Source: Lysobacterales bacterium
GTDB lineage: Bacteria; Pseudomonadota; Gammaproteobacteria; Xanthomonadales; S139-57
NCBI GenBank assembly: GCA_015485125.1
Contig: WFUE01000130.1
Coordinates: 1-51,768 of the forward strand
Length of the DNA stretch: 51,768 bases
Reading direction: 5' to 3'
Part shown: piece by piece, positions 15,405 through 51,269 of the stretch
Position numbering within the stretch: the stretch's first letter is position 1
How the letters are laid out: the number at the start of each line of letters is the position of its first letter
Notes under the pieces: model-generated
What the model was told of the DNA's origin: nothing
The model's database searches: none
The model's input: only the letters and a program-made list of their open reading frames with translations
Made by a program: the position numbers and the translations under genes

Positions 15405-15410
15405 GGTCTG

Positions 15411-17095: not shown

Positions 17096-17195
17096 GGCTG
17101 CTCCCCAATGGGTTGGTCTAGCGAATCCAGCAACTGTTTCGCGGATCCTGTGGTTACGCCTGTTACATTAGCACTTTCTACACTATTGCTGTAAA

Positions 17196-17230
17196 GAAAA
17201 AAAAGGCCCGGCTATGCCAGGCCTTTTTCA
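17196..17230 (-). terminator. Strong rho-independent terminator between dsrP and dsrN
   Basis: The minus strand reads aaaaaGGCCTGGcatagCCGGGCCttttttttt: a 7-bp GC stem with one G-U pair, followed by a 9-T run, 13 nt after the dsrP stop. Confidence 0.75.
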
Positions 17231-17242
17231 GCGGATTGCTAT

Positions 17243-18463: not shown

Positions 18464-18468
18464 AATCC

Positions 18469-19230: not shown

Positions 19231-19670
19231 TGGCGAGCCTCCATCAAGGTATTGCGAATGGTGTCTTCCGAAAGCCCTTGCCGCAGCATCACAGGATGGC
19301 GAGCCTGTTCATAGGCCTCCTCCGGTTTATCGGCATGGCATTGGAAACAGTCAATCTTCACGGCTGCATAGGTGTGACAGGAATTACAGAAGTGTTTTTC
19401 CGTTTTCACGGAAACCCACTCACCCTTCTCGTCCTTGGTAGCATGGCAGTTGATGCATTCCACCAGGCTGAACTGCGGGTTGCGATAGCCCTCGTGCACG
19501 GTTTCGTCCCGCTGGTGCAGGATGTATTTCATATGATTTTTCCGCATTTCATCCGTGGGTCGCACGCAGGATTCACCCTTGCGTGCTTCCGGAATCTGCG
19601 GCAATACACCTGACCAGGCTGCCAAGGGCAGCAACAGGCCAATCAGCAATGCAATCAGCCCTTGTCGCAT
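19227..19670 (-). CDS. dsrJ: DsrJ (periplasmic triheme cytochrome c)
   Basis: Three CxxCH motifs (CINCH, CNSCH, CFQCH) follow the signal/anchor MRQGLIALLIGLLLPLAAWSG. I trimmed the start to the ATG at 19670, 1 nt after the dsrL stop. Confidence 0.9.
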   Translation of the reverse strand: MRQGLIALLIGLLLPLAAWSGVLPQIPEARKGESCVRPTDEMRKNHMKYILHQRDETVHEGYRNPQFSLVECINCHATKDEKGEWVSVKTEKHFCNSCHTYAAVKIDCFQCHADKPEEAYEQARHPVMLRQGLSEDTIRNTLMEARQ

Positions 19671-19671
19671 C

Positions 19672-21612: not shown

Positions 21613-21656
21613 CGCGCCTCTCCTAATTCAATTAAATTTCACCGAACCAGTACGAT

Positions 21657-23147
21657 TTATTCGTGCTGGTCAAAAACCAGAGCATCCCCAACCAGTTGGT
21701 GCAGGCTCAGAATGCTGTCCATCTCGAATCCGTAATACGGCATGACCTTGGTGAACTGGCTCTTGCAGATCGCGCAGATGGCCACCAGGTGATCCACGCC
21801 GTAGTTGTCATGCACATGCTTGAGTGCCTCCATCCGCGGCAGGGCACCCTTGACCCGCAGTTCCATCAGGTCATCGGTCAGCAGGCCGCCGCCACCGCCG
21901 CAACAGAAGGTGCTTTCGCAAATGGTTTCCCGCGGCATGTCGTGGTAGTTGTTGACCACCGACTTGAGAATGGCCCGAGGAATCTTGAACTGGCCACCCG
22001 GCTCGTTGCCCATGCGTGAGCCCCGTGCCACATTGCAGGAATCATGGAAGGTCACATTGAGATGATCATTGGCGGAAGGATCCAGCTTCAATTGCCCTTT
22101 CTGAATGGCATCCCAGGTCACTTCACAAATGTGCTGCGGCACCGGGTAATTGGGGTCGAGAAAATCAAAGGGCCCCGCCAGGGTATTGAGGAAGCTGTAG
22201 GCCACCCGCCAGGCATGGCCACACTCGCCGAACACGATACGCTTGACACCCAATTCCAGTGCCGCCTTGCGGATGCGCAGGGCCAGGCGTTGCATGTTCT
22301 CGTAACTGCCGATGAACATGCCGAAGTTGGCCGCCTCGCTGGCGAAGGAACTCATGGTCCAGCTGATGCCCAGCTGGTGGAAGACCTTGCCATAACCAAT
22401 CAGGCCGTCGATATGCGGCTCGGCAAAGAAGTCGGCGGACGGGGTGATCAACAATACATCAGCGCCCTTCTCATCCAGCGGATAGCGCACGGGCACGCCG
22501 ATATCCTCTTCGACCTCCTCTTCCAGATCCAGCAGCGTATCCTTCAGCGCTGGCTGAGGCAGACCCAGGTTGTTACCCAGCGTCTGCGCCTTGTGGATGA
22601 TCTCGTTGCAGTACTTCTGCCCCACGCCGACAGAGTCCAGAATCTCCCGGGCAGCCATGGAAATCTCTGCGGTATCGATACCATAAGGGCAAAATACAGA
22701 GCAGCGACGACACTGGGAGCATTGGTGGAAATAGCTGTACCACTCGTCCAGCACTTCCTTGTTCAGATCCACCGCGCCAACCAGTTTCGGGAAATACTTG
22801 CCGGCAAAAGTAAAGTAGCGACGATAGACCTTGCGCAGCAGATCCTGACGGGCCACCGGCATGTTTTTCGGGTCCGCCGTGCCCAGGAAGTAATGACACT
22901 TGTCGGTACAGGCACCGCATTTCACACAGGCATCGAGAAAGACCTGGAAGCTGCGATACTTGCCCAGCAGATCGCCCATCTTGTCCAGCGCGGCCTGCTC
23001 CCAGTTTTCCACCAGCTCGCCGGGGTAGCCCAGCGGTTGCTGCCATTGTTCCTTGGAAACAAACGGTTGGCTGTGCGCCATCGCCCCTTCCTGAAGTTCG
23101 GGGATTTCGATATGTTCCTTCAGCTCGGGTACTTCAAAATCTGCCAC
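21657..23147 (-). CDS. dsrK: DsrK (HdrD-like CCG-domain iron-sulfur catalytic subunit)
   Basis: Ferredoxin-like CVKCGACTDKC and CSQCRRCSVFCP, plus CCG-domain signatures (FCCGGGGG, CAICKSQ). Confidence 0.9.
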   Translation of the reverse strand: MADFEVPELKEHIEIPELQEGAMAHSQPFVSKEQWQQPLGYPGELVENWEQAALDKMGDLLGKYRSFQVFLDACVKCGACTDKCHYFLGTADPKNMPVARQDLLRKVYRRYFTFAGKYFPKLVGAVDLNKEVLDEWYSYFHQCSQCRRCSVFCPYGIDTAEISMAAREILDSVGVGQKYCNEIIHKAQTLGNNLGLPQPALKDTLLDLEEEVEEDIGVPVRYPLDEKGADVLLITPSADFFAEPHIDGLIGYGKVFHQLGISWTMSSFASEAANFGMFIGSYENMQRLALRIRKAALELGVKRIVFGECGHAWRVAYSFLNTLAGPFDFLDPNYPVPQHICEVTWDAIQKGQLKLDPSANDHLNVTFHDSCNVARGSRMGNEPGGQFKIPRAILKSVVNNYHDMPRETICESTFCCGGGGGLLTDDLMELRVKGALPRMEALKHVHDNYGVDHLVAICAICKSQFTKVMPYYGFEMDSILSLHQLVGDALVFDQHE

Positions 23148-25135: not shown

Positions 25136-25528
25136 TTAGTCGCCAAACTCAACCAGACGATCGGCCTGAATACAGGCTTCGACCAATTGCCCCAGGCCGG
25201 TGATGTGAAACACTTCGGCGATGTTGTTCACATCCTTGCCCCAGCGTTGCGCTTCACCTTCATCCAGCAAACCCCGGCGTTGTGCGGCAGCCACACAGAC
25301 GGACAGGTCCAGATCATGTTCCTTGCCCAGTGCCACCCACTTCTCGGTGATGTTGCGATCGTCCTGTGGCGGCACGCCCAGGCGGGTCGCGTTGTTCACA
25401 CCGTCGTGATAGAAGAACACACGGATGATTTCGTGGCCCTTGTCCAGCGCGGCCTTGCAGAAATTGTAGGCCGTGTCGGACGCCTGATGGTTGTAGGGCC
25501 CTTCGTTGATCATGATTGCGTATTTCAT
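25136..25528 (-). CDS. dsrE: DsrE (sulfur relay protein, active-site Cys subunit)
   Basis: A 130-aa DsrE/TusD-like protein (MKYAIMINEGPY ... LSVCVAAAQRRG). Confidence 0.9.
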   Translation of the reverse strand: MKYAIMINEGPYNHQASDTAYNFCKAALDKGHEIIRVFFYHDGVNNATRLGVPPQDDRNITEKWVALGKEHDLDLSVCVAAAQRRGLLDEGEAQRWGKDVNNIAEVFHITGLGQLVEACIQADRLVEFGD

Positions 25529-25551
25529 GAACCAGTTTTCCTCGTCAAAGT

Positions 25552-25576
25552 CGGCAGCAGGGGTTGCCTGCTGCCG
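25552..25576 (-). other. Intercistronic stem-loop between dsrB and dsrE
   Basis: A perfect 10-bp stem, CGGCAGCAGG/CCTGCTGCCG, with a 5-nt loop lies 6 nt after the dsrB stop. The dsrE RBS (GAGGAAA) follows it on the minus strand. Confidence 0.6.
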
Positions 25577-25582
25577 CAGGCA

Positions 25583-26653
25583 TCAGAAGCGGATGTGCGT
25601 AGATGCGTTCAGGTTCTTGCGAGCACCACGCCAGTTATCCACGTGATAACGGGTGAACGGCAAGCCGGTCAGCTCGAAGAAACGCGGCCAACCGATACGC
25701 TCGATCCAGTCGTTGATCCGCTCCCAGTCCTTGGCATCCTCCTTGTAGACCTTGAGGATGTTCTTGACGATAGCGGTTGCTTCGGGCCAGCGCGGCGGGT
25801 TGTTGGGAATGCCGGCAGCCACCAGCTTCTGGAAAGTCGGCTTGCCACGGGCGTTGGAGTGATTGCCACCCACCCAGATGGCCAGCTTGGTGTATTCGGC
25901 ATCGTTGATCTGCATGGGCGGACACGGCGGGAAGCAGGCACCACAGCAGATGCACTTCTTCTCGTCCACTTCCAGGGAGGGCTTGCCGTTGACCATGGCC
26001 GGACGAATGGCGGCCACCGGGCAGCGTGCCACCACGGAAGGACGCTCACAGACATTGGCCACCAGATCGTGGTTGATGCGCGGCGGCTTGGTGTGCTGCA
26101 CGTTGATGGCGATATCACCCTGGCCACCGCAGTTGATTTGGCAGCAGGAGGTGGTGATATGCACACGGTTGGGCATGTTCCAGTTACGGAACTCGTCAAT
26201 CAGCTCGTCCATCATCGCCTTCACCACGCCAGAGGCGTCGGTACCGGGGATGTCGCAGTGCAGCCAGCCCTGGGTGTGGGACAGCGTGGTCACGGAGTTG
26301 CGGGTACCGCCCACGACGAAACCGGCCTCTTCGACGGCCTTGATCAGGGGCTCGACCTTGGATTCGTCAGCCACCTGATACTCGATGTTGGAGCGGATGG
26401 TGAAGTGCACATAGCCGTCACCGTACTTGTCACCGATTTCGGTGAGCTTGCGCAGGGTGTAAAGATCGAGAATCCGCTGGGTGCCCACGCGAATGGTCCA
26501 GATCTTGTCGCCACTGTGCGCCACGTGCAGCAGTACGCCCGGGCGGGGATCTTCATGATAGGCCCAGTTGCCATAGTTCTTGCGCATCACGGGATGCATG
26601 TACTGGAATCCGTCAGGACATCCGGATTCAATAGGTTCGCGCATTTCAGACAT
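25583..26653 (-). CDS. dsrB: Dissimilatory sulfite reductase beta subunit (oxidative type)
   Basis: Siroheme/[4Fe-4S] Cys motif region TTSCCQINCGGQGD, ferredoxin-domain CICCGACFPPCP, and typical length (356 aa). Confidence 0.95.
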   Translation of the reverse strand: MSEMREPIESGCPDGFQYMHPVMRKNYGNWAYHEDPRPGVLLHVAHSGDKIWTIRVGTQRILDLYTLRKLTEIGDKYGDGYVHFTIRSNIEYQVADESKVEPLIKAVEEAGFVVGGTRNSVTTLSHTQGWLHCDIPGTDASGVVKAMMDELIDEFRNWNMPNRVHITTSCCQINCGGQGDIAINVQHTKPPRINHDLVANVCERPSVVARCPVAAIRPAMVNGKPSLEVDEKKCICCGACFPPCPPMQINDAEYTKLAIWVGGNHSNARGKPTFQKLVAAGIPNNPPRWPEATAIVKNILKVYKEDAKDWERINDWIERIGWPRFFELTGLPFTRYHVDNWRGARKNLNASTHIRF

Positions 26654-26725
26654 GATTGTCTCCAGAAAGCTTGATTAATAATGACCGGCGCCGGGCGCAC
26701 TGCCCGGCACCAAAACAGATCTGAA

Positions 26726-27994
26726 TCAGGCTTGAGCCGCCTTCTTCTCGGCTTGCTTGGCAAACCACTCCTTCGCAGCCTCGTCCCAGCCGTCGGTCCG
26801 TACATAGGACACGTTGCGCGGGTTGCTGATCATGTGGGGGTCCACATCGATATCCAGGCCCTCGAGGAAGTTCACCAGACCGATACGCTCGATCATCTCG
26901 CCGCAACGTTCGTGCTCCAGGCCGTTCTCGGCCCAGAAGTCGATCACTTCTTCGGCGAACTCCACCAGCTGCTCGTAATCCTCTTCGGTTTCCAGCTTCA
27001 TGAAGGGCACGATCACGGTACCCATCAGATCACCGATTTTCAGGGTACGCTTGCCACCGATGAGAATGGTCACGCCCTTGTCGTCTCCCGGAGACAGTGC
27101 CTTGGGCATCACATTCAGGCAGTGCATGCAGCGCACGCAGTTGCGGTTGTCCACCTGCAGTTCGTTGTCGTCGGTCAGCGCCAGTGCATTGGTGGGGCAG
27201 CGGCTGATGACATTGTCAATCAGGTACTGACGACCCTTGGTTTCACAGTAGGCCTTGACCTGCTCCTGATCCACCTTCATGTCGTCGCGCCAGGTGCCAA
27301 TGACGGCAAAGTCGGAACGCTCGATGGCGTTCTGGCAGTCATTGGGGCAACCGGAAATCTTGAACTTGAACTTGTATGGCAGTGCCGGACGGTGCACATC
27401 ATCCGTAAAGTTGTTCAGCAGGTGACGGTGGATGACATGCTCATGCGCACAGGACATTTCGCAACGAGCCGCACCCACACAGGACATGCCGGTACGCACA
27501 CAGGGGCCGGCACCACCCAGATCCCAGCCGTATTCGTTGATCTCATCGAAGAAGTGCTGGGTACCCTCGGTGTCGGTACCGATAAACATGATGTTGCCGG
27601 TCTGGCCGTGGAAGGTGATCAAACCGGAACCGTACTTCTCCCAACTGTCGGCCAGCTTGTTCAGCATGTCCGTGGTGTAGAAGTTGCCGGCGGGCGGCTG
27701 AACACGCAGGGTATGGAATTCCTTGGATTCGGGGAAGGATGCCGCCACCTCGGAAAAGCGCGGGATGATGCCGCCGCCATAACCGTAGACGGAAACCGTA
27801 CCGCCCTTCCAGTAACCCTTGCGGGTCTCGTACGAATGCTCAAGCTGGCCCAGCAGACTGTTGGTCACGGAACGAATACGCTCGTTCTCATGGTTGTCTC
27901 TCAGGCGCTTGATTCCACTGATGAAGCTGGGCCATTCGCCATTCTCCAGCTCATCCAGCATCGGGGTATCGTAGATTTTATCAGCCATTGTCAA
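26726..27994 (-). CDS. dsrA: Dissimilatory sulfite reductase alpha subunit (oxidative type)
   Basis: N-terminal YDTPMLDELENGEWPSF, SGCPNDCQNA, and the ferredoxin domain CPTNAL...CVRCMHCLNVMP, in a 422-aa protein. Confidence 0.95.
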   Translation of the reverse strand: MTMADKIYDTPMLDELENGEWPSFISGIKRLRDNHENERIRSVTNSLLGQLEHSYETRKGYWKGGTVSVYGYGGGIIPRFSEVAASFPESKEFHTLRVQPPAGNFYTTDMLNKLADSWEKYGSGLITFHGQTGNIMFIGTDTEGTQHFFDEINEYGWDLGGAGPCVRTGMSCVGAARCEMSCAHEHVIHRHLLNNFTDDVHRPALPYKFKFKISGCPNDCQNAIERSDFAVIGTWRDDMKVDQEQVKAYCETKGRQYLIDNVISRCPTNALALTDDNELQVDNRNCVRCMHCLNVMPKALSPGDDKGVTILIGGKRTLKIGDLMGTVIVPFMKLETEEDYEQLVEFAEEVIDFWAENGLEHERCGEMIERIGLVNFLEGLDIDVDPHMISNPRNVSYVRTDGWDEAAKEWFAKQAEKKAAQA

Positions 27995-28499
27995 ATCCTC
28001 GTTCGCAGGTGCACCACGCGATTATCATGAAAACCTATGGAGCCGGCTCGCGCCCACTCCGGGAAAACAGGAACACGGAAAACAGGTGAGTTCCGTGTCG
28101 TTAGCAGTCTAGTGGGCGCGTGCCCCGAGCAAAATCACACGATGGGGGTAACGGCCATCCAGCGTCTATCTCGATAGGGATAGCGGCCTGTCGAAATCCC
28201 GTTCCCGCGTCCACAACCATGCGAATCATTATGTGGCTCAACCAGCTGAAAAACATATCCTTTCCGAGGGAGAGCCAGCCTCCTACACCCCACCCATCTG
28301 CCTGACAGCCTGCTAAATCAACAAGTTACCCATACCCCAGCCGCTGCTTCAATTTTTTTCAACGACTTCTGTGCATTCATCAGGACTGGCCGTCACGCAG
28401 CAGCCGCTTTCCCACTCCCCCCACAGCGATAGATTGATTCCATCCGCTTGTACTGCTTAGACTTGCCACACCATTGAGGCCATCCTTGTGGAGAAAACG
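27995..28499. promoter_or_regulatory. Long divergent control region upstream of dsrA
   Basis: About 500 nt are free of convincing ORFs. The region contains the direct repeat GGAAAACAGG x2 (28062-28071, 28077-28086), an 8-bp hairpin ACACGGAA/TTCCGTGT (28073-28098) and the inverted repeat CTATC-tc-GATAG (28166-28177). No promoter was mapped. Confidence 0.35.
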
Positions 28500-38245: not shown

Positions 38246-39564
38246 GGTTGTGGAGCCTCCGCCTCATCCACGGGACCGGCGCTTTCCTCCGTACCCGACA
38301 GGTGCGCCACCACCTGCCGGAAGCTGTTCAGGCTCTGGCCGATGGGTGGCAGCTCCGGCTGCAACGGCGTCTGTTGTAACAGGGCCAGTTCCGCCAGTGC
38401 CTGTTTGACCTGCGCATCATTGGTATCGAACTGGTTTTCGATCCATGCGCGGGTATCGTTCAGCAGGGCCTGCACCTGATCCGGCTGCTGCCCGGTCAGG
38501 GCGCTTTCCAGCGCGCTCAGTTGCAGCACCAGCGCCTGATGGCTGGCCTGCTGCCAGCTGGCCGGCAGGGGCGGTGCCTCATCCACCCGCCGCAGGCTGA
38601 CCAGTTGGGAAAGCTGGCTCTGCAACCGGCCCCACCAGCCCGCGCCGCCCTCGGTAGTCTTCTTCTCGCCCGATTCGTTTTCGGCAGCCTTCAGCGGCCA
38701 GTGGGCCTGCTGCGCCTTCATTTCAGCCAGCCAGCCCAGCCAGCGGGCGATATCCGGCATGGCCACGGCCTTCAGGGCCTGGATTTCCGCCTCCACCTGC
38801 AAACGCACCCGCGTGTAGGCGGGATTGTCCAGCGCGGCCAGATGCTGGCTGGCCATTTCCAGCGCGCGCAGGGCCAGGTCGCGGTTCTGGAACAGTTCCA
38901 CCCGCAAAATGGCGGTACGCAGCAGGAATTCAATTTCCATCAGTTTCTGCGCCCGGTCGCCACCGGTCTTCAATTGCGCCAGCTGCATCAGCGCATTCTG
39001 GAAACGGTCGTCGGCCCGTTGCAGGGCATCGATCTGCTGCTTGAGCCCGGCCTGCTGCTGACGCAGGGATTCCAGCGTGCCCGCCTGCTGTTGCCGCACC
39101 TGTTCCAGCGCCTGTTGCAGTTGTTCCAGTTGCTGGCGGTGGCGACTCTCACCTTCCTTGAGAAAACGCAGCTGCTGCTGCACCTGTTCCAGCGGACCCT
39201 GCCAGGGCGGGGTCACCGGCGTCGATTGCCGTTGCCATTGCTGCCAGCCCAGCCAGCTGGCCAGTACCAGCGCCAGCAGTGCCAGCAACAGAGCGGCGGC
39301 TCCCAGGCCCCGGCCCGTGCCGTTGCGGGCAGGGGCATCGGCTGACGGTGGGGCCTGATGTATTTCATCATGGGCTTCTTCGGCAGCTTCATCCGCTTCC
39401 AGCGGCTCGGCTGTGCTTTCGGCCTGCAGCACGGGCGGTTCCCGCCCGGCATCGGAGGCGGCTTGCGCCGGTCTTTCTTCCGATACGTTTTCTTCCGCTT
39501 CCAGCGTTTCCGAAGCCGGATTTTCCTGTTCGTGTTCCGGTGTCTTGTCCTGGCTCATCTTCAT
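38242..39564 (-). CDS. hemX: HemX-like protein (often annotated as a uroporphyrinogen-III C-methyltransferase)
   Basis: An acidic low-complexity N-terminus, a single TM segment (LGAAALLLALLALVLASWLGW), then a Q-rich coiled coil. The gene lies before hemY. Confidence 0.7.
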   Translation of the reverse strand: MKMSQDKTPEHEQENPASETLEAEENVSEERPAQAASDAGREPPVLQAESTAEPLEADEAAEEAHDEIHQAPPSADAPARNGTGRGLGAAALLLALLALVLASWLGWQQWQRQSTPVTPPWQGPLEQVQQQLRFLKEGESRHRQQLEQLQQALEQVRQQQAGTLESLRQQQAGLKQQIDALQRADDRFQNALMQLAQLKTGGDRAQKLMEIEFLLRTAILRVELFQNRDLALRALEMASQHLAALDNPAYTRVRLQVEAEIQALKAVAMPDIARWLGWLAEMKAQQAHWPLKAAENESGEKKTTEGGAGWWGRLQSQLSQLVSLRRVDEAPPLPASWQQASHQALVLQLSALESALTGQQPDQVQALLNDTRAWIENQFDTNDAQVKQALAELALLQQTPLQPELPPIGQSLNSFRQVVAHLSGTEESAGPVDEAEAPQP

Positions 39565-42125
39565 TCATCCAGCATGATTTGTCGGGCGGGCTCCCGGTCG
39601 TTGTAGCGGGAGGACATCACGGCGCCATACGCACCCGTATTGGCCACCAGCATCATATCACCTTCCCGGCAGATAGGCAGTTGTCGATCCACGCCGAGAA
39701 TGTCGCCTGTTTCACAGATTGGGCCTACCACCGTGGCCGTCAAGGCCGGCGGCTCGTGCAGGCGCGTCAGATTGACGATGGGGTGGTAGGCGCCATAGAG
39801 CACCGGACGAATCAGGGAGTTCATTCCGGTTTCCACGCCCACATAGTGGGTACTGCCCTTGCGCTTGGTCTGGGTCACCCGGCTGACCAGCACGCCGCTG
39901 TTGGCCACCACAAAGCGGCCCGGCTCCAGCCAGAGTTCCACATCCGGGTGTTGCCGGCGGATTTCCGCCAGGCTTTCATCCAGCGCCTGCATGTTCAGCG
40001 CCGGCTCGCCGGGAGATTCCTGTATGCCCAGACCCCCGCCCAGGTCGATATGGCGCACGTCGGGGAAAGCTTGGCGCACCCGGTGGAGGAAGCGCGCGGT
40101 CTGTTGCCAGTTTTCGTAGTTGAGAATGCCGCTGCCGGTATGGGAGTGCAGCCCTTCCACGGTCACGCCATGCTGTTTCAGCAGCGCGGCCATGGGTTCG
40201 ATTTCTTCCGGCGAGATGCCGAACTTGGAGCCCTCTCCCGCCGTGCGCACATATTTGTGATGACCCTTGCCGTGGCCGGGGTCCATGCGCAGCATGACGG
40301 TCTTGCCGGCAAAGACTTCCGGCCAGGCTTCCAGCGGGTAGCGGTTGTCCAGAGTCACATGCACGCCCAGCTCGAAGGCCCGTTCGTATTCCTCCCGTGG
40401 GGCGAAGTTGGGCGTAAAGAGGATGCGGTCGCGGTCGATGTCCGGGAACAGCCGCAACACTTTTTCCAGCTCGTTGGGTGATACGCACTCCAGCCCTAGC
40501 CCGGCGGCCTCCACAATGCGCAGCACCGGCTCGAAATCGTTGGCCTTCATGGCGTAGAACACCCGATTGACCTGCCGCAGGGATTGCAGCTGCGCCAGCT
40601 GCCGGCGGATGGTGTCGCCGTGGTAGATGTAGGCGGGGGTTTGGTCTTCGGCAAAGGCCAGCAGCCGTTCCCGCTCACGCTCCCACCAGGGCGCTTCGCT
40701 GGGGGCATAGGCCTTGAGGTTTTCCTGCATCAGCTCTTCCCAGGTGGGGCCGAGCACACCGGGGCTGCGCTCGATGCCGATGAGCAAGCGGTGCAGGTTC
40801 TTGGCCAGCCGTTCGGTCTGGTCTTCATCCACCACCACGGTGAGGTTGAGGTCGTTGGAGGACTGGTTGAGCATGTGGATGCGATGTTCGGCAAACACCT
40901 GCATGGCCGGCCCCAGCTTGTGCAGGGTGGCGCGCATGCGCCGGCCCACCAGGGTGACAGCACCGCAGTTTTCGATCAGCTCCACCTGGCAGAGTTCTTC
41001 CAGATCGGCTTTCAGGCCCAGCAAGTCGGCGCGGGTGAATTCGTTTTCGCTCTGGTCCAGCGAGACGGTGACATTGGTCTGCGAGGTGGAAATCAGGTCC
41101 ACCGACAGCCCGTGACTCTTGAACACGGCGAAGGCCTCGGCGAGAAAACCGGCCTGATGCCACATGCGCACGGTGTTCATGGAAACCAGCACCAGCCCCT
41201 TGCGCACCGAGATGGCCTTGACCTGGGTGGGCTGCACCCGTTCGGCCTTGCCGATGCAGGTGCCGCCGGCTTCCGGCTTCTGCAGGGCGTAGACGCACAG
41301 GGGAATGCCCGCCTCGGCCACCGGCTGAATGCAGCGCGGATGCAGCACCTTGCCCCCGGCGGAGGCGATTTCCTGCGCCTCGTCGTAATCCAGTTCCAGC
41401 AGCTGGCGGGCGGTGCTGATCATGCGCGGGTTGGCGGTGAACATGCCGGGCACATCGGTGTAGATTTCCAGCATTTCCGCCTGCAGGCGCACGGCCAGAT
41501 AGGCCGCGCTGGTGTCGGAACCTTCCCGCCCCAGCAGCAGGGTACGCCCGTATTCATCACCGCAGATGAAGCCCTGGGTCAGGCACAGGGGCGCGTGCCG
41601 GGCCAGATCCTCCTGCAGCGCCGGGTCGGGCGCGTGCTGGCAGCGGGCGGAGAGAATGCGGCTGCGCAGGTTGCGCTGGTCGTCTTCCACCGGGCTGAGC
41701 AGCTTGCGGGCATCCAGCCACACCGCCGGCAGGCCCTGCTGTTGCAGCCAGGCGCAGGAAAGGTGCGTGGCCAGCAACTCGCCCTGGGCCATGATTTCCG
41801 CCTCCAGGTACTCGCTGGCATTTTCCTGCTCGAGCCGCCCGGCCAACTGGCGCAGCTGCTCGAAACCTTCCGCCAGCACAGCCAGGTCCACGCCCATTTC
41901 CGTCGCCAGCGCCTCGTGCCGGGCCTGGATGTCGTCCACCAGCGCCCCATCGCGGCTTTCGATCAGCGCCGCCAGCTGGTTGGATACGCCAGCCAGGGCG
42001 GAATGCACCACCAGCACCGGCTGTTGGGCGATTTTCTCTTTCAGCAGGTCACGAATGCGTTGCCAGTTCTGCACGGTGGCCACACTGGTGCCACCGAATT
42101 TCATCACGCGCCATTGCTTGCTCAT
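39561..42125 (-). CDS. Bifunctional aspartate kinase / diaminopimelate decarboxylase fusion
   Basis: The N-terminal half is an aspartokinase (VMKFGGTSVA, ACT-like region). The C-terminal half is a PLP decarboxylase (FYAMKAN, HSHTGSG, CETGD). I trimmed the start to MSKQWRVMKFGG (ATG at 42125). Confidence 0.85.
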   Translation of the reverse strand: MSKQWRVMKFGGTSVATVQNWQRIRDLLKEKIAQQPVLVVHSALAGVSNQLAALIESRDGALVDDIQARHEALATEMGVDLAVLAEGFEQLRQLAGRLEQENASEYLEAEIMAQGELLATHLSCAWLQQQGLPAVWLDARKLLSPVEDDQRNLRSRILSARCQHAPDPALQEDLARHAPLCLTQGFICGDEYGRTLLLGREGSDTSAAYLAVRLQAEMLEIYTDVPGMFTANPRMISTARQLLELDYDEAQEIASAGGKVLHPRCIQPVAEAGIPLCVYALQKPEAGGTCIGKAERVQPTQVKAISVRKGLVLVSMNTVRMWHQAGFLAEAFAVFKSHGLSVDLISTSQTNVTVSLDQSENEFTRADLLGLKADLEELCQVELIENCGAVTLVGRRMRATLHKLGPAMQVFAEHRIHMLNQSSNDLNLTVVVDEDQTERLAKNLHRLLIGIERSPGVLGPTWEELMQENLKAYAPSEAPWWERERERLLAFAEDQTPAYIYHGDTIRRQLAQLQSLRQVNRVFYAMKANDFEPVLRIVEAAGLGLECVSPNELEKVLRLFPDIDRDRILFTPNFAPREEYERAFELGVHVTLDNRYPLEAWPEVFAGKTVMLRMDPGHGKGHHKYVRTAGEGSKFGISPEEIEPMAALLKQHGVTVEGLHSHTGSGILNYENWQQTARFLHRVRQAFPDVRHIDLGGGLGIQESPGEPALNMQALDESLAEIRRQHPDVELWLEPGRFVVANSGVLVSRVTQTKRKGSTHYVGVETGMNSLIRPVLYGAYHPIVNLTRLHEPPALTATVVGPICETGDILGVDRQLPICREGDMMLVANTGAYGAVMSSRYNDREPARQIMLDE

Positions 42126-42216
42126 GCCGCCATCTTTCCTGCTGCCAAAAACCGGCAGTGTATGCATGGGCGGCCCGTGGGGGAATAGTCCATTCGGTAT
42201 TGATGTGTGATGACAA

Positions 42217-43617: not shown

Positions 43618-46390
<2,773 letters not shown>

Positions 46391-46397
46391 CCGCCTG

Positions 46398-47537
46398 TCA
46401 GTAAAACGGCTGCTCCCAGGGCATCCCCGCCTGCCAGTGCCCCCACCAGGCCAGTTCCGTCAGGGGCTTGTCGGCCTTGACAAAGCTTTCCTGACACAGA
46501 CTGTTCCACAAAGGCGGATCGGACAGCGCCTTTCTCCAGCGGTCACCCAGATCGCGACCATCCGCCATGAATTGCACCTGCTCCGGCTCCACGCCACCGG
46601 GCATGTATTGCAGGCGTACCAGCACTTCCTCACCCAGCCCCGCGCGCACACCGGCCAGCGCCAGCTTGCGTGCCAACAGGTTGCCGAAACGATCCACCTT
46701 GTAAAAATCCTTGCCTGAAAGCGCACCGCCACCGATGGGTACGGTGGGGCCGTAGAAATCCATCACCAGCTTGCGCCCGGTACTGCCGTTGTCGCCCATC
46801 GGGCCGGCAACCGTGAATGAGCCACCGGGATTGATCCACAAACGTGGCATGCCAAACGACTTGCAGACGCGTTCCACGGTCTCGGTCAGAATTTGCTGCA
46901 TCCAGAACGGATCGGTCTGTTCATGGTGACTGAGGCTGATGACCACGGTCTCCGGCTGCCATTGGGAACCGTTCCGTCGTACCCGAACCAGCACCTTGCC
47001 ATCCGGCCCCAGCCATTGCGGATGATTCTGCCGGCAGGCAAAGAGTGCCTGTGCCAGCGCGCGAGCCAGCCAGTGAGCCGGCGGCAAATGATTCGTTTCT
47101 TCGCATGCGTTGGCATAACCCACACAAAGGGCCTGGTCACAGATCACATGCAGGTTTTGCTTGATCTCGTGCGGCAGGCTGAAACGCCGAATCAGACTGT
47201 GAATATTCAGTCTGGACGGCTGTGGCGGCCATAGATGCCCACCGGTACTGTCCCCATAGCCACACTGGCGCAACACCTGCAGAAACAGATCCTTGTCCAG
47301 GGGCGTTGCTGTACCACCCGTCCAGCCATTGTGCGGCTGGTGCAGGCTGACATGGAGCTGTTCGTGCAACATCTGCACTTCCACACTGCACAGATCCTTG
47401 CGTTGTTTTCTCACACGTGCCCGCCAGCCGTTACCGGCACCGAGGATCTGGTCCACCACCGCGTCAGCCATGGCGTCACACAATTTGTCCGGATGACCGG
47501 GCAAGACATATTCGGCGGTTTCTTCACTTATTTCCAT
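46398..47537 (-). CDS. Divergent MetK-like (S-adenosylmethionine synthetase fold) protein
   Basis: MetK motifs are retained: GHPDKLCDAMADAVVD, CDQALCVGYA, LGPDGKVLV, INPGGSFTVAGPMGDNGSTGRKLVMDFYG, and GGGALSGKDFYKVDR. The start at ATG 47537 has AGGAGAG upstream and overlaps the upstream gene by 10 nt. Confidence 0.7.
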   Translation of the reverse strand: MEISEETAEYVLPGHPDKLCDAMADAVVDQILGAGNGWRARVRKQRKDLCSVEVQMLHEQLHVSLHQPHNGWTGGTATPLDKDLFLQVLRQCGYGDSTGGHLWPPQPSRLNIHSLIRRFSLPHEIKQNLHVICDQALCVGYANACEETNHLPPAHWLARALAQALFACRQNHPQWLGPDGKVLVRVRRNGSQWQPETVVISLSHHEQTDPFWMQQILTETVERVCKSFGMPRLWINPGGSFTVAGPMGDNGSTGRKLVMDFYGPTVPIGGGALSGKDFYKVDRFGNLLARKLALAGVRAGLGEEVLVRLQYMPGGVEPEQVQFMADGRDLGDRWRKALSDPPLWNSLCQESFVKADKPLTELAWWGHWQAGMPWEQPFY

Positions 47538-48883
47538 GACGGTCTCTCCTGGTTTTTCCAGAAAAACGCCCTGGCATTGAAATCCTGCAGAAAAGCCTGT
47601 TGCTCCAACAGCCATTCACCTGCATGGGTAACGAATACATGCACCCGTCGTCCCTGACGCAAACGGGCAACCAGATGCTCCGGGACGCGCCCCACCCAGC
47701 CATCGGTTATGATCAGTGCGTGTTTCACATCATGCTTGAGCATGTGTCTGGCCACACACTCGATCTCCGTCCCCCACCAGGTATCCACCTGCCCCTCGCG
47801 CAAGGCCTGCAGATCGATATCCCGCACGCGCGTACTGAACAGATGCACCTCTGGATACAGGGCCTCGCGTGCTGCCAGCAGCTCTCCGTAACAATGGGGC
47901 AGCCAATGCGCCATGGAACCACTGACATCCAGGTAGATATGCACGCTGCCACCCCGATTGCGCGCCTGCGGGCGGACATGGGTCTGCAGCAACGTCTGCC
48001 AGCCCAGCAAACGCCCCAGCCAGGCACGGCGATCCCGGCTGGACGGCAAGGGCATGATCACCTTTTCTGTTTCCGGCTGGGGCGAACGGGCCACTCCCGC
48101 CTCGTGCAGTAGCGGCCACAAGGCCCGGCGGAACTGCCGCCTGACCTCGTCGGGTGACGCCTTCGGTACGATGGCATGACAAGAAAGGGTTGCCTCCGCG
48201 CCACGCAGTGGTTGCGGGTAACGCTGACCGATCTCATCCAGCGCCTGTTGCAACAGGGGGTCGACTGTGGACTTCTGGCCCAGGACCGGCTCATGACCGC
48301 CCAGCAGCAGGATATCCACACGCGGGCACAGCGACAGGATGGCGTCGATCAGGTCCGTCAACGGTAATTGGGTACTGCTGTACAGGAGCTGGTGGACCTG
48401 CAAAGCCCGGCCTTGCAAGCACCAGCGAACAGACGACTCGCCCCAGCCTGGCGGTGGCCGCAACCAGGCATATGGCAGGGCGTCGGGGCGATACAACCGG
48501 CGAAACAGGCCTGTCCATCGTGGTTCCGGAAAGGCCTGGCACAACTGGGCGTTGATCAGGGCATCGAAGGCCAGATTGTGCACGCTGTCCACCGGTCCGT
48601 TCCAGCGGGTGTGGCCCAGCATGACATGCAGCAATTCATGCATCACCAGCATGGCCAGCGCTTCCCGGGTCGCGCAGTGCCGCATCACGAAATCCGGATT
48701 GATACGCAGGCGGGGCCGGTGTTCCAGGGTGACGGCCGCGGTTTCCACCTCGCGGCATACCTTGATTTCCAGTATTTCAAGCAACTGGTGAAAGGCCGGA
48801 TTTTCCACCGGCAGGGCCTGGAGGATACGTTCCAGCAAACGCTCGCTTTCCTCTGTACGCCGGACCAGTGCATGGGCGCTCAT
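47528..48883 (-). CDS. HExxH metallopeptidase-like N-domain plus VWA-like C-domain protein (DUF2201-type MoxR partner)
   Basis: HELLHVMLGH, followed by NLAFDALINAQ. The C-terminal MIDAS-like motifs are YLDVSGSM ... GTEI ... IITDG. Confidence 0.7.
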   Translation of the reverse strand: MSAHALVRRTEESERLLERILQALPVENPAFHQLLEILEIKVCREVETAAVTLEHRPRLRINPDFVMRHCATREALAMLVMHELLHVMLGHTRWNGPVDSVHNLAFDALINAQLCQAFPEPRWTGLFRRLYRPDALPYAWLRPPPGWGESSVRWCLQGRALQVHQLLYSSTQLPLTDLIDAILSLCPRVDILLLGGHEPVLGQKSTVDPLLQQALDEIGQRYPQPLRGAEATLSCHAIVPKASPDEVRRQFRRALWPLLHEAGVARSPQPETEKVIMPLPSSRDRRAWLGRLLGWQTLLQTHVRPQARNRGGSVHIYLDVSGSMAHWLPHCYGELLAAREALYPEVHLFSTRVRDIDLQALREGQVDTWWGTEIECVARHMLKHDVKHALIITDGWVGRVPEHLVARLRQGRRVHVFVTHAGEWLLEQQAFLQDFNARAFFWKNQERPSWK

Positions 48884-49446
48884 GGTCTGTTCCCCGCCAT
48901 GGCATGGACACGGAGGCCTTTCACCCAGCCGACCTGTGGCGGCAATTGCAACATGCGTTGGCTGCTATACAGAGGTGGTCTGCTACCAGCCAGCAGACAC
49001 AGGGCCCGCGCGGGGTCCATTTCCAGCGATCCTGCCCGGCACATATCCGGTTCCAGTTCCTGAGCCACTGCGAAGGGTGGCAAACCGGGATTCATGGCCT
49101 GTATAGCCTCCAGTGCATCAATCAGGGCCTGTTCCAGCGTCTCGCGCTTGCTGTCGAACCAGACTTCCACCCGCCGGCAACAGGGCGCTTCCGTATCACC
49201 ATCACCGGCGGCCCACCGTGCCAGTTCCAGCCAGCAGGCCCACGGCATCCGGGGTTGTTCATCGATGGTGTACGGTCCCCAGCATTGCTGGATCTCGCCT
49301 TCCCGCTCCATCCAGTGAAAAGGAGGAAAATGACGGGCCAGCAGCTGCAATGGCTGCACTGTGGCCAGCACACGCATGCCCATTGCCCTTGCCAGGGTGG
49401 TGCCGCCGCGTGGTGGAACATAAACCTTGGTTGTGGGCACTTTCAT
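48880..49446 (-). CDS. Orphan 188-aa protein (Trp/Cys/Pro-rich), no recognised family
   Basis: The ORF is bracketed by ATGA stop/start overlaps on both sides (49443-49446 and 48880-48883), which argues that it is translated. Confidence 0.5.
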   Translation of the reverse strand: MKVPTTKVYVPPRGGTTLARAMGMRVLATVQPLQLLARHFPPFHWMEREGEIQQCWGPYTIDEQPRMPWACWLELARWAAGDGDTEAPCCRRVEVWFDSKRETLEQALIDALEAIQAMNPGLPPFAVAQELEPDMCRAGSLEMDPARALCLLAGSRPPLYSSQRMLQLPPQVGWVKGLRVHAMAGNRP

Positions 49447-50876
49447 TCAGCCACCTCCCGTTCCTGTTCATCGATCCGGAACAAGACCCGCCAGTTGAGA
49501 TCCAGCATCACCAGTTGTTCCGGGTCAAACCGGGTCCGACGCTTTTTCAGAAACAGGTATAACAGGATGTTGCCCAGCTGCTCGGCTTCCGGGTGACCGT
49601 TTTGTTCCAGCGCCGTCACCGTCTGACGCAGGCGGCTCCATTGCCGGCCGTTACCCCATTGGTATTCGAAGGTGCGGTCTTTCCTGACGCAGAAGGCGAG
49701 AACCCCACTCAAGGTTTCCGCCAGGATTTCCTGTACGGTGGTGGTGAATGCTTCTGGAGAAACGGCCATCAACAAATTGCGAACCAGAATGAAGCGTTCC
49801 TCCTCGCTGGTTTTTTCCCAGGCATCACTGAACAACTGCGAGCGTTGCAAACGGGTAATCTGTGGCTCACGCAAGGCCAGCGCCAGCCGGCAGACCGGAT
49901 CTTTCTCCCTGCGCAGCTTCTGCCAGAAGTCCATCTGTGGATTACCGGCACATTGCACCGCTTCCTGATGAGCGGCCAACAAGCCATGCGCGGGTATTTC
50001 CTGCCCCTGCGCCGGATGAGGCAAGCTCCATCGCAATGTTTGCAGCGCCAGGCTTTCCAATGGTTGTTCCTGACCAAGAACCCGGCTGGCAACCGTCAGC
50101 GACTCCAGGTTTCGCAGCAACAGCACCAGACGACGGCCACTCAGGTAAATACCGGCCTCGGCCAGGGGCCCTACCAGTGATTGTGCCCAGCGCTGCATCC
50201 AGAGTCGATCGGCTGCCGGCAACTGCGCCGACTCTGCACGGGCTTGCCTGATCATCGGCTCCAGCCGGTGATCCGTCCGTATCGGCGCGTCACCATGCAG
50301 CAGCATGCGTTCGCATTCTTCTTCAGGGAAGCTGGTGAAATCCGGAATGGAGACAATCCAGGCAAACCGGTCTGCCAGCGGAGCTTCCAGCGGCAGCGAG
50401 CCTGCATAGTGATCTGCCTCGTCACCCCATTGCACCGGTGGATTCATGGCCGACCAGCAATAGCGCAGCTTTTCCAGTTTTACTCCCAGCACGCGCCTTT
50501 CGTGAATCATGGAAAACAGCTTGTTCTGGGTTTCGGGCCGGCAACGGGAAATCTCGTCAAAAAATACCGATTCAGCCGCCCAGATGCTGGCCGGTGTCTG
50601 CAGGTATTGCAACTGTTCACCGGCCGCATCCGGTACAGGAAAACCCAGCAGATCATCGAAACTGATCAAGCTGGCATTGTAGTGTCTGTGTTCCAGCCCC
50701 AGAGCCTCGGAAAGCCGGTTGAGCAAGGCCGACTTGGCCGTGCCATGCCTGCCGATGAGCAGTAACGGACGCGCATCGGCCAGTGCGGCCAGCACCATCG
50801 CGTCCAGTTCGTCCAGACCGTAGATATGAAGTTGACGCAACAGCCGCGCCGGTTTGGTGGATGCCTGATTGGACAT
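49443..50876 (-). CDS. MoxR-type AAA+ ATPase with a ~280-aa helical C-terminal extension
   Basis: Walker A GRHGTAKS, Walker B VFFDEISR, sensor-1-like SAMNP, and LADRF. The start at ATG 50876 has GGAAGGAGG 5 nt upstream. Confidence 0.8.
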
Positions 50877-50940
50877 GACGACCTCCTTCCCCGCCCAGAC
50901 CCATCGCTGGTCAGACCCGGGGGAAGCAGGCTCTGCCAAC

Positions 50941-51000
50941 GCTTTAGCTGCATTTGTGAATCGCCCGCAAGTTGTTGCTTAAATCGGCGATGTTTTCCGT
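50941..51000. repeat. Direct repeat unit R1 (~60 nt), proximal to the MoxR operon start
   Basis: gctttagctgcatttgt..cgcccgcaag.tg...c.t.aaatcggcg......gta is shared with 51051-51110. The first 17 nt are identical, and by eye about three quarters of positions match overall. Confidence 0.7.
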
Positions 51001-51012: not shown

Positions 51013-51047
51013 AAAAAACCCGCTCGGCCACAGCCAACGCGGGTTCT
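51013..51047 (-). terminator. Weak terminator-like hairpin between repeat units R2 and R1
   Basis: The minus strand reads AACCCGC-(15-nt loop)-GCGGGTT followed by TTTTCATTT. The stem is only 7 bp and the loop is large. Confidence 0.35.
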
Positions 51048-51050
51048 TCC

Positions 51051-51110
51051 GCTTTAGCTGCATTTGTTACGCGCCCGCAAGCTGAGCATCAAATCGGCGC
51101 ATCTTCAGTA
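51051..51110. repeat. Direct repeat unit R2 (~60 nt)
   Basis: The second copy of the repeat at 50941-51000, in the same orientation, with a 110-nt period. Confidence 0.7.
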
Positions 51111-51269
51111 TCCACAAGATCAGAATTTTGTCAAATCCCGTTTATCCCCGTACGGATGCGCAAACAGACAGGCACAGCGTTTTTCGCCCCCCTCACAGGA
51201 GCATGGCCATTTTTTGCACAGCACAGGCTTGCTACAATAGCCGGTTCATTGTTTGAAGCAGGCGCGCCC

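Follow-up and report, generated by a model that had tools for sequence, protein, structure and literature searches.

The results presented here show that gene D, a MetK-like gene in a 51,768-nucleotide stretch of DNA (the window) from a Lysobacterales bacterium (assembly GCA_015485125.1, contig WFUE01000130.1), forms the last gene of an operon of four genes (A-B-C-D) that is self-contained and horizontally mobile. Judged from its sequences, the family of D proteins is a large, cross-phylum and distinct set of MetK paralogs, in which the contacts to the methionine main chain are systematically replaced, and aptamers of three SAM classes, recognized by sequence searches, precede the operon and differ between phyla. 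The explanation that we favour, to which we give about an even chance, is that the operon constitutes a SAM-starvation-induced adenosyltransferase module, in which enzyme D depends upon a dedicated AAA+/vWA-peptidase machine. The features of the window relevant to this account are listed below.

46374..46386 (-): terminator-like hairpin directly past the stop codon of gene D, lying within the 3' end of parE, which is convergent
46398..47537 (-): gene D, MetK-fold paralog, 379 aa, annotated as "methionine adenosyltransferase domain-containing protein"
47528..48883 (-): gene C, 451 aa (Pfam, alignment)
48880..49446 (-): gene B, 188 aa, fast-evolving (alignment, AF2 model of a relative)
49443..50876 (-): gene A, MoxR-type AAA+ ATPase (AAA_5/bpMoxR), with Walker A GxxGxAKS and Walker B DE
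50940..50990 (-): proximal SAM-II-like aptamer, copy 2 (74.4 bits with our model R1)
51013..51045 (-): hairpin and U-tract between the aptamers (AACCCGCGUUGGCUGUGGCCGAGCGGGUUUUUU), resembling an intrinsic terminator
51033..51110 (-): distal SAM-II aptamer, copy 1, full-length match to RF00521, core at 51050-51100
51107..51134 (-): sigma-70-like promoter (TTGACA, 16 nt, GATACT), upstream of the leader

Gene D and its methionine pocket

The stop-to-stop reading frame of gene D reaches an ATG at 47615; the 379-aa start overlaps the stop of gene C by 10 nt, and the identical arrangement is present in the orthologue of locus L001, which shows 74% identity to the D protein of the window. A first-pass annotation of this gene had described the MetK signatures as recognizable, and all of the motifs that it quoted were located, viz. 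GHPDK (residues 14-18), RARVRKQRKD (39-48), HQPHNGWTGGTATPLD (66-81), VICDQA (131-136), GYA (140-142), PDGK (178-181), GDNGSTGRK (248-256), GGGALSGKD (269-277), KVDR (280-283) and ELAWWGHWQAGMPWEQPFY (361-379). The protein matches the Pfam domains S-AdoMet_synt_M (E = 3.5e-13) and S-AdoMet_synt_C (E = 9.9e-20), while the N-domain match is confined to residues 7-35 and falls below the cut-off. The score with the TIGR01034 equivalog is 151.7 bits, which does not pass the cut-off of 309.4, and the best PDB MetK match (E = 4e-32) covers residues 133-324. In the structure prediction, which that annotation had proposed as a check, the AF2 model (pLDDT 81.6, pTM 0.84) is a three-domain MAT fold, and the top 50 Foldseek matches in PDB are all MATs (TM ~0.70-0.72). 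Due to these Pfam, TIGR01034, PDB and AF2/Foldseek matches, the motif matches are not attributable to chance.

The alignment with MetKs indicates that the essential catalytic residues are not lost, although the protein lies outside normal MetK variation. The ATP/PPPi/Mg/K positions H14, D16, K17, E42, D118, Q119, D163, K165, F230, D238, K245, K265, D266, K269 and D271 are conserved at 95-100% among 117 members of the D family, the same 15 positions are conserved in 90 canonical MetKs, and all 15 are retained in the window, in agreement with the description of the catalytic motifs as intact. In a wider set of about 190 family members the ATP, PPPi, Mg and K residues are invariant. From this conservation D is predicted to be catalytically competent. 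Its comparison with the L001 orthologue gives a dN/dS of 0.17 (0.25 in the divergent segment 35-132), and on this sequence evidence D is a real gene under purifying selection and not a decayed copy, as had been surmised.

The positions that contact methionine show a different pattern. The residue corresponding to E. coli E55 is R in 98% of the D family, that at Q98 is A, L or N, that at I302 is P in 99%, and H257 is replaced by I; further, the gating loop is 7 aa shorter and its Gln-Ser is absent. These counts refer to 117 members; in the wider set of about 190 (191 sequences for this position), G117 is replaced by D in most cases. At the E55, Q98, G117 and I302 positions the window protein has H66, L115, C133 and P313, and its subclade exhibits a correlated switch from R/D/K to H/C/R. 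The methionine main chain is anchored in human MAT2A by Glu70 (equivalent to E55), Gln113 (equivalent to Q98) and Asp258, and gating-loop mutants lose SAM synthesis while keeping PPPase activity (PMC6850014). Since the residues binding free methionine in every MAT studied are gone in D, the synthesis of SAM from methionine by this protein is not assured. An HMM of the D family separates the two groups with a clean gap, its members reaching 296 bits or more and canonical MetKs not exceeding 225 bits. A profile search of genome and viral contigs with the D alignment was dominated by canonical MetKs, as the patterns chosen are common to them, and it recovered 9 family loci.

Based on these results, the remodelling of the N domain noted in the first-pass annotation holds insofar as the methionine-contact positions are replaced; however, it is a shared signature of the family and not a peculiarity of the window gene. 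The basic stretch RARVRKQRKD is likewise present, but it is restricted to the window/L001 lineage, with GQCGLEAACVF..TGRIA in its place elsewhere in the family, and residues 39-47 are modelled with pLDDT < 50. The supposedly unusual Trp-rich tail is, in contrast, the canonical C-terminal motif, which aligns column for column with TAAYGHFGRE..FPWE of E. coli MetK and has the form ELARWGHQ..G.PWE in the paralog family. That annotation lacked the decisive context of the gene, viz. the four-gene MoxR/vWA-peptidase operon and its predicted control by SAM riboswitches.

The four-gene operon and its putative SAM riboswitch leader

The start and stop codons of the four genes overlap, indicating translational coupling. 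The likely start of gene A is the ATG at 50876, which is preceded by a Shine-Dalgarno sequence (AAGGAGG, 50882-50888), whereas the mechanically called frame extends to a TTG at 50939. All 24 A proteins searched against Pfam match AAA_5 and 21 of them match bpMoxR; in PDB sequences (phmmer/HMM), A finds weak similarity to the Midasin AAA domain and nothing else. At its N-terminal end C has a DUF2201_N Zn-metallopeptidase-like domain, whose HExxHxxxGH (H82, E83, H86, G90, H91) is invariant, and at its C-terminal end a vWA domain, in which the MIDAS (D319xS321GS323...T372...D394) is intact and also invariant in the family; 7 of 13 C proteins match VWA_CoxE, and phmmer/HMM searches found no solved homologue of C among PDB sequences.

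Neither B nor C matches NCBIfam, and B is also without a match in Pfam or PADLOC. A word-index search with the window B alone found nothing, and relatives were recovered once an alignment was used. Its N-terminal motif LLHNMSAPPKSVV is conserved, predicted to be disordered and carries a nearly invariant Met; the motif has the form (LLHN)MSAPPR/KS.V in relatives and comprises 10 residues in the window, where B starts exactly at this Met. A motif peptide derived from B reads LLHNMSAPPRSVV, its window counterpart being of 10 residues. The C-terminal part is a compact alpha/beta domain in the AF2 model of a family representative, which is good at residues 50-170. An assignment of B to iSTAND was not supported, as this model gave no significant Foldseek match; the confident 120-aa domain found no match in PDB and BFVD (best E = 0.9-1.4).

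The order A-B-C-D was seen in 15 of the 15 family loci first examined, while none of the canonical MetK loci examined had A or C. In a search seeded on C, A was upstream in 50/50 loci and D was downstream in approximately 60 of 64. There is no conserved fifth gene downstream of D, save a canonical metK in a minority of loci. Canonical-type metK lies within or beside the operon in about 7 loci (L009, L176, L180, L184, L190, L200 and L212), in several of them immediately downstream of D, but in most system loci metK is not adjacent. Locus L176 is arranged as riboswitch, metK, riboswitch and A-D, the second aptamer being SAM-II-like. The cassette is accessory, allele-swapped between close relatives and patchy in its phyletic spread: its dS is 1.1-1.4 in comparison to 0.25 for the adjacent parE, its GC3 is 0.65-0.72 versus 0.855, the close relative L253/L254 lacks the operon, and on one contig there are two copies, of which one is degraded. 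Neither a MetK-like gene with MoxR/vWA nor an operon of this kind was found described in a literature search including the full text of PMC7159879 and PMC12839542.

At the Rfam gathering threshold no match was found in the whole window. The aptamers of the leader were detected by a local E-value search after it was noticed that the leader is approximately 98% conserved. Copy 1 matches RF00521 (SAM_alpha) with 32.2 bits, below the gathering score of 36, and with a local-search E of 8e-6, whereas homologous elements in L012, L167, L169, L170 and L207 pass this gathering score. Copy 2 has a P1 stem of UCGCC/GGCGA and the cores GAUUUAAG, ACUUGC and GCUAAAG. In 21 instances of the SAM-II-like elements GAUUU, CUUGC and GCUAAAG are invariant, and compensatory changes are seen in 5/5 pairs of P1, with the register of the 3' strand picked for best pairing. 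Of the 51 loci, 30 carry a SAM-I, SAM-I/IV or SAM-II element at the gathering level directly upstream of A; with the addition of regex and model R1 SAM-II-like matches this number becomes 42, and a recognizable aptamer was not found at 9. All 44 matches of model R1 lie on the operon strand of system loci, and there are none in 46 control loci and none in L253. Matches in the leader, on the + strand, to Bp2_287 and OrzO-P were dismissed, as they are far below thresholds and are antisense overlaps with the aptamer and terminator. The leader aptamers of the window are putative SAM-binding elements that would repress the operon. The usual targets of SAM riboswitches are metK and methionine genes (PMC2864571).

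Proposed function and alternative explanations

In the reading that we favour, scarcity of SAM would lead the aptamers to switch on the operon, whose role would be the supply of SAM or methionine. Enzyme D would attack the C5' of ATP and then release and cleave the triphosphate, with a sulfur acceptor held by a charge-swapped site of D, in which E55 and G117 give way to R and D, or to H and C in the window. The most likely acceptor would be methionine in a different binding mode, a close methionine precursor or a small thiol, and the reaction would refill the SAM/Met pool. Proteins A, B and C may form a dedicated remodelling or processing machine for D, by analogy with MoxR-vWA pairs that activate an enzyme encoded nearby. 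In such a machine B or D may be gripped by the vWA MIDAS, and the N-terminal motif conserved in B may be a substrate of the peptidase. MoxR-vWA pairs act as activases of neighbouring enzymes, as in CbbQO and NorQD. See also PMC9976466 and PMC4660213 on this subject. If the operon is repressed by SAM, as its leader suggests, a function linked to SAM/methionine supply is likelier than an unrelated new product. However, this reading leaves unexplained the need of an enzyme for an AAA+ ATPase, a metallopeptidase and a hypervariable small protein, and the 9 of 51 loci without a recognizable aptamer, together with the sub-gathering RF00521 score of the window aptamer, count against it. Further, the fast evolution of B, allele swapping, low GC3, patchy spread and frequent TA/restriction neighbours are typical of conflict systems.

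These last features raise a second explanation, rather unlikely in our estimate, viz. that the operon is a conflict (anti-phage) system which responds to SAM depletion. A fall in SAM caused by phage SAM lyases or MetK inhibitors would open the tandem riboswitches, and the MoxR-vWA-peptidase module with its variable sensor B would be deployed, with D serving as an inhibitor-insensitive backup SAM synthetase that sustains methylation-based immunity or as an ATP-consuming effector. The architecture parallels that of the MoxR-vWA ternary conflict systems (PMC7159879; PMC12839542 section 21), from which the bpMoxR family matched by most A proteins was defined. Consistent with it are also the rapid divergence of B (21% mean column identity, dN/dS 0.34), the elevated dS and reduced GC3 of an operon absent from L253/L254, the contig with two copies, and neighbours such as DndB/AIPR/HEPN, BrnT/A, Dpd genes, a WYL-type regulator, GmrSD, C5-MTases and ParE toxins. 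However, PADLOC-DB v2.0.0 matches none of A-D at E <= 0.01, no family-type D was found among the 80 best viral-contig matches, and C has no tblastn match in PLSDB plasmids. The neighbourhoods are also heterogeneous: 140 flanking ORFs, pooled and searched with PADLOC and Pfam, show no dominant neighbour and many metabolic genes, these being descriptive counts and not an enrichment. Further, the fold of B matches neither STAND nor another solved structure, and the cassette of L176, which directly follows a canonical metK with a riboswitch before it and has a further SAM-II-like aptamer of its own, argues against a toxic abortive effector. A narrower form of this explanation, which we regard as unlikely, is that of an immune module whose tandem SAM aptamers sense phage-inflicted SAM depletion and in which the machine is deployed with a D of new acceptor chemistry, acting as an inhibitor-proof SAM source or an ATP-consuming adenosyltransferase. 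We know of no precedent for riboswitch-gated defence, and if the conflict-system explanation is correct, this would be the first such system known to us.

It is quite unlikely, but conceivable from the sequences, that D forms another S- or X-adenosyl compound, e.g. 5'-methylthioadenosine from methanethiol or one from a different small nucleophile, or that it adenosylates the conserved Met in the disordered N-terminal motif of B, with C then processing the product; the SAM aptamers would in this case serve only to keep the consumption of adenosyl or sulfur pools in balance. The loss of the E55 and Q98 contacts for free methionine, the new R/D pair of the pocket with Pro at I302, and the nearly invariant Met of the B motif, at which the window B begins, are in accordance with this, as is the fact that the window/L001 lineage has altered both the pocket of D (R/D/K to H/C/R) and the B motif. 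However, this apparent co-variation comes from a single lineage, and control by SAM riboswitches together with metK linkage is most simply interpreted as a role in SAM/Met supply.

A very unlikely alternative is that D is a MetK mimic and not a stand-alone enzyme. By hetero-oligomerizing with canonical MetK or mimicking it, D would at low SAM deliver MetK to the MoxR-vWA-peptidase machine, which would reactivate, remodel or turn it over. The activase role of MoxR-vWA pairs and the adjacency of metK in about 7 loci, several with metK immediately downstream of D, would fit this, as would the location of MetK active sites at the dimer interface with both subunits contributing (PMC6850014); but the catalytic residues are completely conserved and the gene is under purifying selection, which indicates that D itself is probably catalytic, and most loci are without an adjacent metK. 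Lastly, that D is an ordinary orthologous MetK or a decaying pseudogene is refuted, despite its MAT fold and family motifs, by its scores (about half of the equivalog cut-off and the HMM gap), its co-occurrence with canonical metK in the same loci, its low dN/dS, its intact frame and its conserved operon context, which agrees with the earlier supposition that it is not an ordinary orthologue.

Comparison with known systems

To our knowledge, all characterized MetK-fold proteins produce SAM from methionine. With canonical MetK/MAT2A (TIGR01034, EC 2.5.1.6), D shares the three-domain fold, all of the ATP/triphosphate/Mg2+/K+ ligands and the C-terminal GH..PWE, but it differs at E55, Q98, I302 and H257 and in the Gln-Ser of the gating loop, reaches half of the equivalog cut-off, and is always accompanied by genes for a MoxR AAA+ ATPase, a vWA-peptidase and a small protein, coexisting with canonical metK in several loci. 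As the D family appears to have kept the ATP/triphosphate chemistry and exchanged its recognition of methionine, it may represent either a SAM synthetase with a new mode of substrate binding, which if true would be useful for the biocatalytic synthesis of SAM analogues, or the first MetK-fold enzyme with another acceptor.

The SAM-riboswitch regulon is usually regarded as well mapped. With the SAM-I/S-box, SAM-I/IV and SAM-II regulons (metK, metA/X and methionine genes), the operon has in common the same aptamer classes in the 5' leader, often in tandem, and a MetK homologue, and in some loci the 3' tail holds the Shine-Dalgarno sequence. It differs in adding an AAA+ ATPase, a protease/vWA protein and a B protein that were not found as known members of these regulons. 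Three independent riboswitch classes would thus add uncharacterized genes to the SAM regulon, and SAM limitation provides a direct experimental handle on them.

The MoxR-vWA ternary conflict systems pair a MoxR ATPase with a vWA-peptidase fusion protein and add a third component that evolves rapidly (Kaur, Burroughs, Iyer & Aravind 2020, PMC7159879; PMC12839542). The present operon likewise has a MoxR ATPase, with bpMoxR as its nearest specific Pfam family, a vWA-peptidase, a rapidly diverging third component and a mobile, patchy spread. However, its third component B is of about 190 aa with no detectable relation to VMAP, iSTAND, FtsH or beta-propeller proteins, its peptidase is an N-terminal DUF2201_N zincin, and it has a MetK-like fourth gene and SAM riboswitches. 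On the point of variable effector domains fused to the vWA or third component, C carries one constant N-terminal zincin-like domain, and the effector position is not variable, D being a constant separate gene. A SAM synthetase component is not mentioned in PMC7159879 or PMC12839542.

A further likeness is to CbbQ-CbbO (Rubisco), NorQ-NorD (NO reductase) and CoxD-CoxE (CO dehydrogenase), where a MoxR ATPase and a MIDAS-containing vWA protein are similarly encoded beside an enzyme. These pairs are thought to mature or reactivate the adjacent enzyme. The operon shows no evident step of metal-cofactor insertion, and it is further distinguished by its MetK-fold client, an HExxH domain on the vWA protein that appears from its sequence to be active, and an extra hypervariable protein. 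D is a candidate client that would be added to those of the poorly understood MoxR-vWA machines.

The MetK-like protein and its active site

The MetK-like protein (D) is preceded on the same strand by three genes (A, B and C), the junctions consisting of ATGA or 10-nt overlaps:

49443-50876 (-): A, MoxR-type AAA+ ATPase (AAA_5 and bpMoxR; GxxGxAKS Walker A, DE Walker B)
48880-49446 (-): B, 188-aa protein without a family assignment
47528-48883 (-): C, protein with a zincin-like domain (DUF2201_N) and a vWA domain
46398-47537 (-): D, 379-aa MetK-like protein

The stop-to-stop ORF of D reaches an ATG at 47615; the start giving 379 aa has a 10-nt overlap with the upstream gene's stop, and the arrangement is identical in the closest orthologue. 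D matches the Pfam families S-AdoMet_synt_M (E = 3.5e-13) and S-AdoMet_synt_C (E = 9.9e-20), while the match to the N domain is restricted to residues 7-35 and lies under the cut-off; the alignment with MetK/MAT sequences from the PDB is similarly restricted to residues 133-324 and 7-36. An AlphaFold2 model based on an alignment of 42 family members (pLDDT 81.6, pTM 0.84) was compared with the PDB using Foldseek, and its best 50 matches are all methionine adenosyltransferases (TM ~0.70-0.72). No second MetK-like gene was found in the window by tblastn with E. coli MetK.

Among the 5.8 billion proteins searched, D has one relative at 74% identity (from L001, the closest orthologous locus), followed by more than 100 full-length proteins at 40-47%. 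These derive from metagenomes and MAGs, and some are named 'methionine adenosyltransferase domain-containing protein' by NCBI. A family HMM separates members (at least 296 bits) from canonical MetKs (at most 225 bits) by a clean gap, and D scores 151.7 bits against the NCBIfam metK equivalog, whose cut-off is 309.4. The dN/dS of D versus its L001 orthologue is 0.17 (0.25 within the divergent segment, residues 35-132, and 0.07-0.14 outside it), in agreement with the first-pass annotation that D is not a decayed copy. Based on the equivalog score, the HMM gap and this dN/dS, the possibility that D is an ordinary MetK orthologue or a pseudogene is excluded.

The motifs quoted for D in the first-pass annotation are all found where it placed them. 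The family was aligned with E. coli MetK (whose numbering is used here) and 90 canonical MetKs. Conserved in 95-100% of the family are H14, D16, K17, E42, D118, Q119, D163, K165, F230, D238, K245, K265, D266, K269 and D271. However, E55 is replaced by R in 98% of members, Q98 by variable residues, the loop following Q98 is 7 residues shorter than in canonical enzymes, and the exchanges R229 to M, R244 to K, H257 to I and I302 to P are seen. In human MAT2A, Glu70 (E55), Gln113 (Q98) and Asp258 (D238) hold methionine by its main-chain N and O, and gating-loop mutants lose SAM synthesis but retain tripolyphosphatase activity (PMC6850014). Read against these roles, the pattern indicates an active site with its ATP/PPPi side intact and its methionine side rewired. 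As judged from residue conservation, D represents a distinct family of MetK paralogs with a rewired acceptor site. The equivalents of E55/G117/R244 are R/D/K in ~180 of 191 family sequences and H/C/R only in the lineage of the window and L001, a correlated triple switch. Two other features were remarked upon earlier: the 'unusual Trp-rich tail' corresponds in the alignment to the canonical motif TAAYGHFGRE..FPWE, its family-wide form being ELARWGHQ..G.PWE, and the basic stretch at residues 39-48 is specific to this lineage and falls where model confidence is low.

An obligatory gene association in an accessory, exchanged cassette

The association of D with the MoxR AAA+ ATPase, the vWA-metallopeptidase and the hypervariable small protein is obligatory. 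The order A-B-C-D is present in every D-family locus retrieved, in Proteobacteria, Planctomycetota, Acidobacteriota, Krumholzibacteriia and others, and in a C-based search of 80 metagenome loci, A was upstream in 50/50 with room for it and D downstream in ~60/64. No further conserved gene was found 3' of D across the loci compared. In C, the HExxHxxxGH of the zincin-like domain is invariant and the MIDAS motif (DxSGS...T...D) of the vWA domain is intact. B is the fastest-evolving component (mean column identity 21%). Its leader is variable, and a tail predicted to be disordered carries the conserved motif (LLHN)MSAPPR/KS.V; for its alpha/beta domain of ~120 aa, which is modelled with confidence, no significant match was found among PDB and BFVD structures. 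In the window, the first residue of B is the Met of this motif. An HMM search identified 232 B clusters among 1.84 billion representatives, nearly all small stand-alone proteins, one match among those listed having 339 aa. Two metagenome homologues (P0149 and P0184) have N-terminal leaders of 70-100 aa, putative as protein, with His/Glu/Ala/Thr-rich repeats (…HTEHAAYVEHTERSAPTEQTAH…) preceding LLHNMSAPPK.

The operon occupies 4.9 kb between parE (end 46390) and mnmG (start 51270). Between the window and L001, the flanking proteins are 97-99% identical (parE dS 0.25), whereas the operon proteins are 49-74% identical with dS of 1.1-1.4 and, for A, B and C, dN/dS of 0.21-0.34. GC3 is 0.65-0.72 in the operon versus 0.855 in parE. 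A third relative (L253/L254), with a ParE from the same cluster at 90% identity, is without the operon, and its homology to the window ends at 46395. The contexts of other loci are heterogeneous, often with TA, restriction or Dnd/Dpd genes, and also metabolic genes. The cassette is an accessory and mobile element under purifying selection.

Several other observations concern these sequences. The mechanical ORF of parE in the window (44324-46390, +) has a 61-codon N-terminal extension, the product in the protein collection being 627 aa from 44507. Two cassette copies (L004 10001-11182 and L011 10001-10915) are found on one 1.42-Mb betaproteobacterial contig of a single genome; the former sits in a TA/integrase island with A and C fragmented, and retains a weak SAM-II-like match in its upstream region. 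The window also contains:

14073-23147 (-): dsr-like gene set in a lower-GC stretch (0.555-0.58), viz. a GAF histidine kinase, a CobB/CobQ-type amidase (DsrN-like), NrfD (DsrP-like), a 4Fe-4S protein (DsrO-like), a Pyr_redox/Fer4 protein (DsrL-like) and a Fer4_8 protein (DsrK-like)
25187-26674 (+) and 26681-28030 (+): adjacent long ORFs of 495 and 449 aa, with no Pfam match at E <= 1e-5
39561-42167 (-): 868-aa fusion of an aspartokinase (AA_kinase and ACT) and a PLP-dependent Orn/DAP/Arg decarboxylase, apparently of LysC-LysA type and also kept in L253/L254

The dsr-like set suggests that the window is from a sulfur-oxidising proteobacterium.

SAM aptamers and the neighbouring canonical metK

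SAM aptamers are present in the operon leader. This ~215-nt region, from a sigma-70-like promoter (51134-51107) to the SD sequence of A, shows ~98% identity between the window and its L001 counterpart, a conservation far above that of the coding sequences, and it contains two 50-nt direct repeats with a terminator-like hairpin between them. Searched locally against Rfam, the distal repeat matched the SAM-II riboswitch (RF00521) over its full length with 32.2 bits versus a gathering score of 36 (E = 8e-6), every conserved SAM-II core being present; these cores recur in the proximal repeat, whose P1 helix is compensated. Aptamers at the Rfam gathering level, often in tandem, lie just upstream of A and on its strand in 30 of the 51 non-redundant related loci, and belong to three classes:

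SAM-I: e.g. L009, L014, L189, L228, L234
SAM-I/IV: e.g. L007 (two), L203, L218, L219 (two)
SAM-II: L012, L167, L169, L170, L207

A SAM-II-like covariance model built on 21 instances gave 44 matches, 100% of them in system loci and on the operon strand; 46 control loci with canonical MetK gave none, nor did L253. Combining Rfam, covariance-model and regex matches, at least one aptamer occurs in 42/51 loci. Compensatory changes are seen at 5/5 pairs of the P1 helix, and the 3' tail, including the SD sequence, reads GCUAAAGAGGAG in L005, L011, L176 and L212. As three unrelated aptamer classes have been recruited ahead of one operon, there is strong comparative evidence that this operon would be repressed by SAM. 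In L207, a gathering-level SAM-I/IV aptamer (6182-6295, -) is also found just past the end of D (6150), on the opposite strand.

A canonical-type metK lies directly 3' of D in L009 and L190 and ~0.5 kb downstream in L212 (all sequence-checked). In L180, L184 and L200 one was located by HMM score and position, in the first two at or just past the end of D and in the third ~1 kb downstream. Thus D and the housekeeping enzyme occur together and are linked in the genome. In L009, a gathering-level match to the Acido-Lenti-1 sRNA (12397-12442, +) lies just past this metK. In L176, SAM-II aptamers, canonical metK, a further SAM-II aptamer and A-B-C-D follow one another:

4339-4399 and 4455-4517: SAM-II-like aptamers ahead of canonical-type metK (ORF 4425-5759)
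5775-5838: third SAM-II-like aptamer, between metK and A

This layout places the housekeeping metK and the cassette in one array under putative riboswitch control.

Proposed function and relation to known systems

We propose, with an about even chance of being correct, that shortage of SAM switches the operon on and that D would then transfer an adenosyl group to an acceptor, helping to restore the SAM/Met pool. The acceptor may be methionine bound in a charge-swapped manner, a close methionine precursor or a small thiol. A, B and C together could form a dedicated machine for the maturation, activation or processing of D, analogous to CbbQO, NorQD and CoxDE. As canonical MetK itself depends obligatorily on chaperonin, it would be less surprising for a MetK-fold protein to have a remodeller of its own.

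It is possible, but unlikely, that the operon instead serves in conflict and is triggered when SAM is depleted. The rapid evolution of B, the swapping of alleles, the defence-island neighbours and a parallel in architecture with the MoxR-vWA ternary conflict systems (Kaur et al. 2020, PMC7159879; PMC12839542, section 21) support this view. However, A-D have no PADLOC hit, no family member is present among the best viral-contig matches, and in L176 the cassette lies directly downstream of canonical metK. That D makes a non-SAM adenosyl product, including by adenosylation of the conserved Met of B, is distinctly improbable, and it is very improbable that D is a MetK mimic delivering MetK to an AAA+/peptidase machine.

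A full-text literature search and targeted reading turned up no account of the operon and none of MoxR/vWA proteins with a MetK-like partner; the building blocks are all of known kinds, and both their combination and the rewired MetK family appear to be undescribed.
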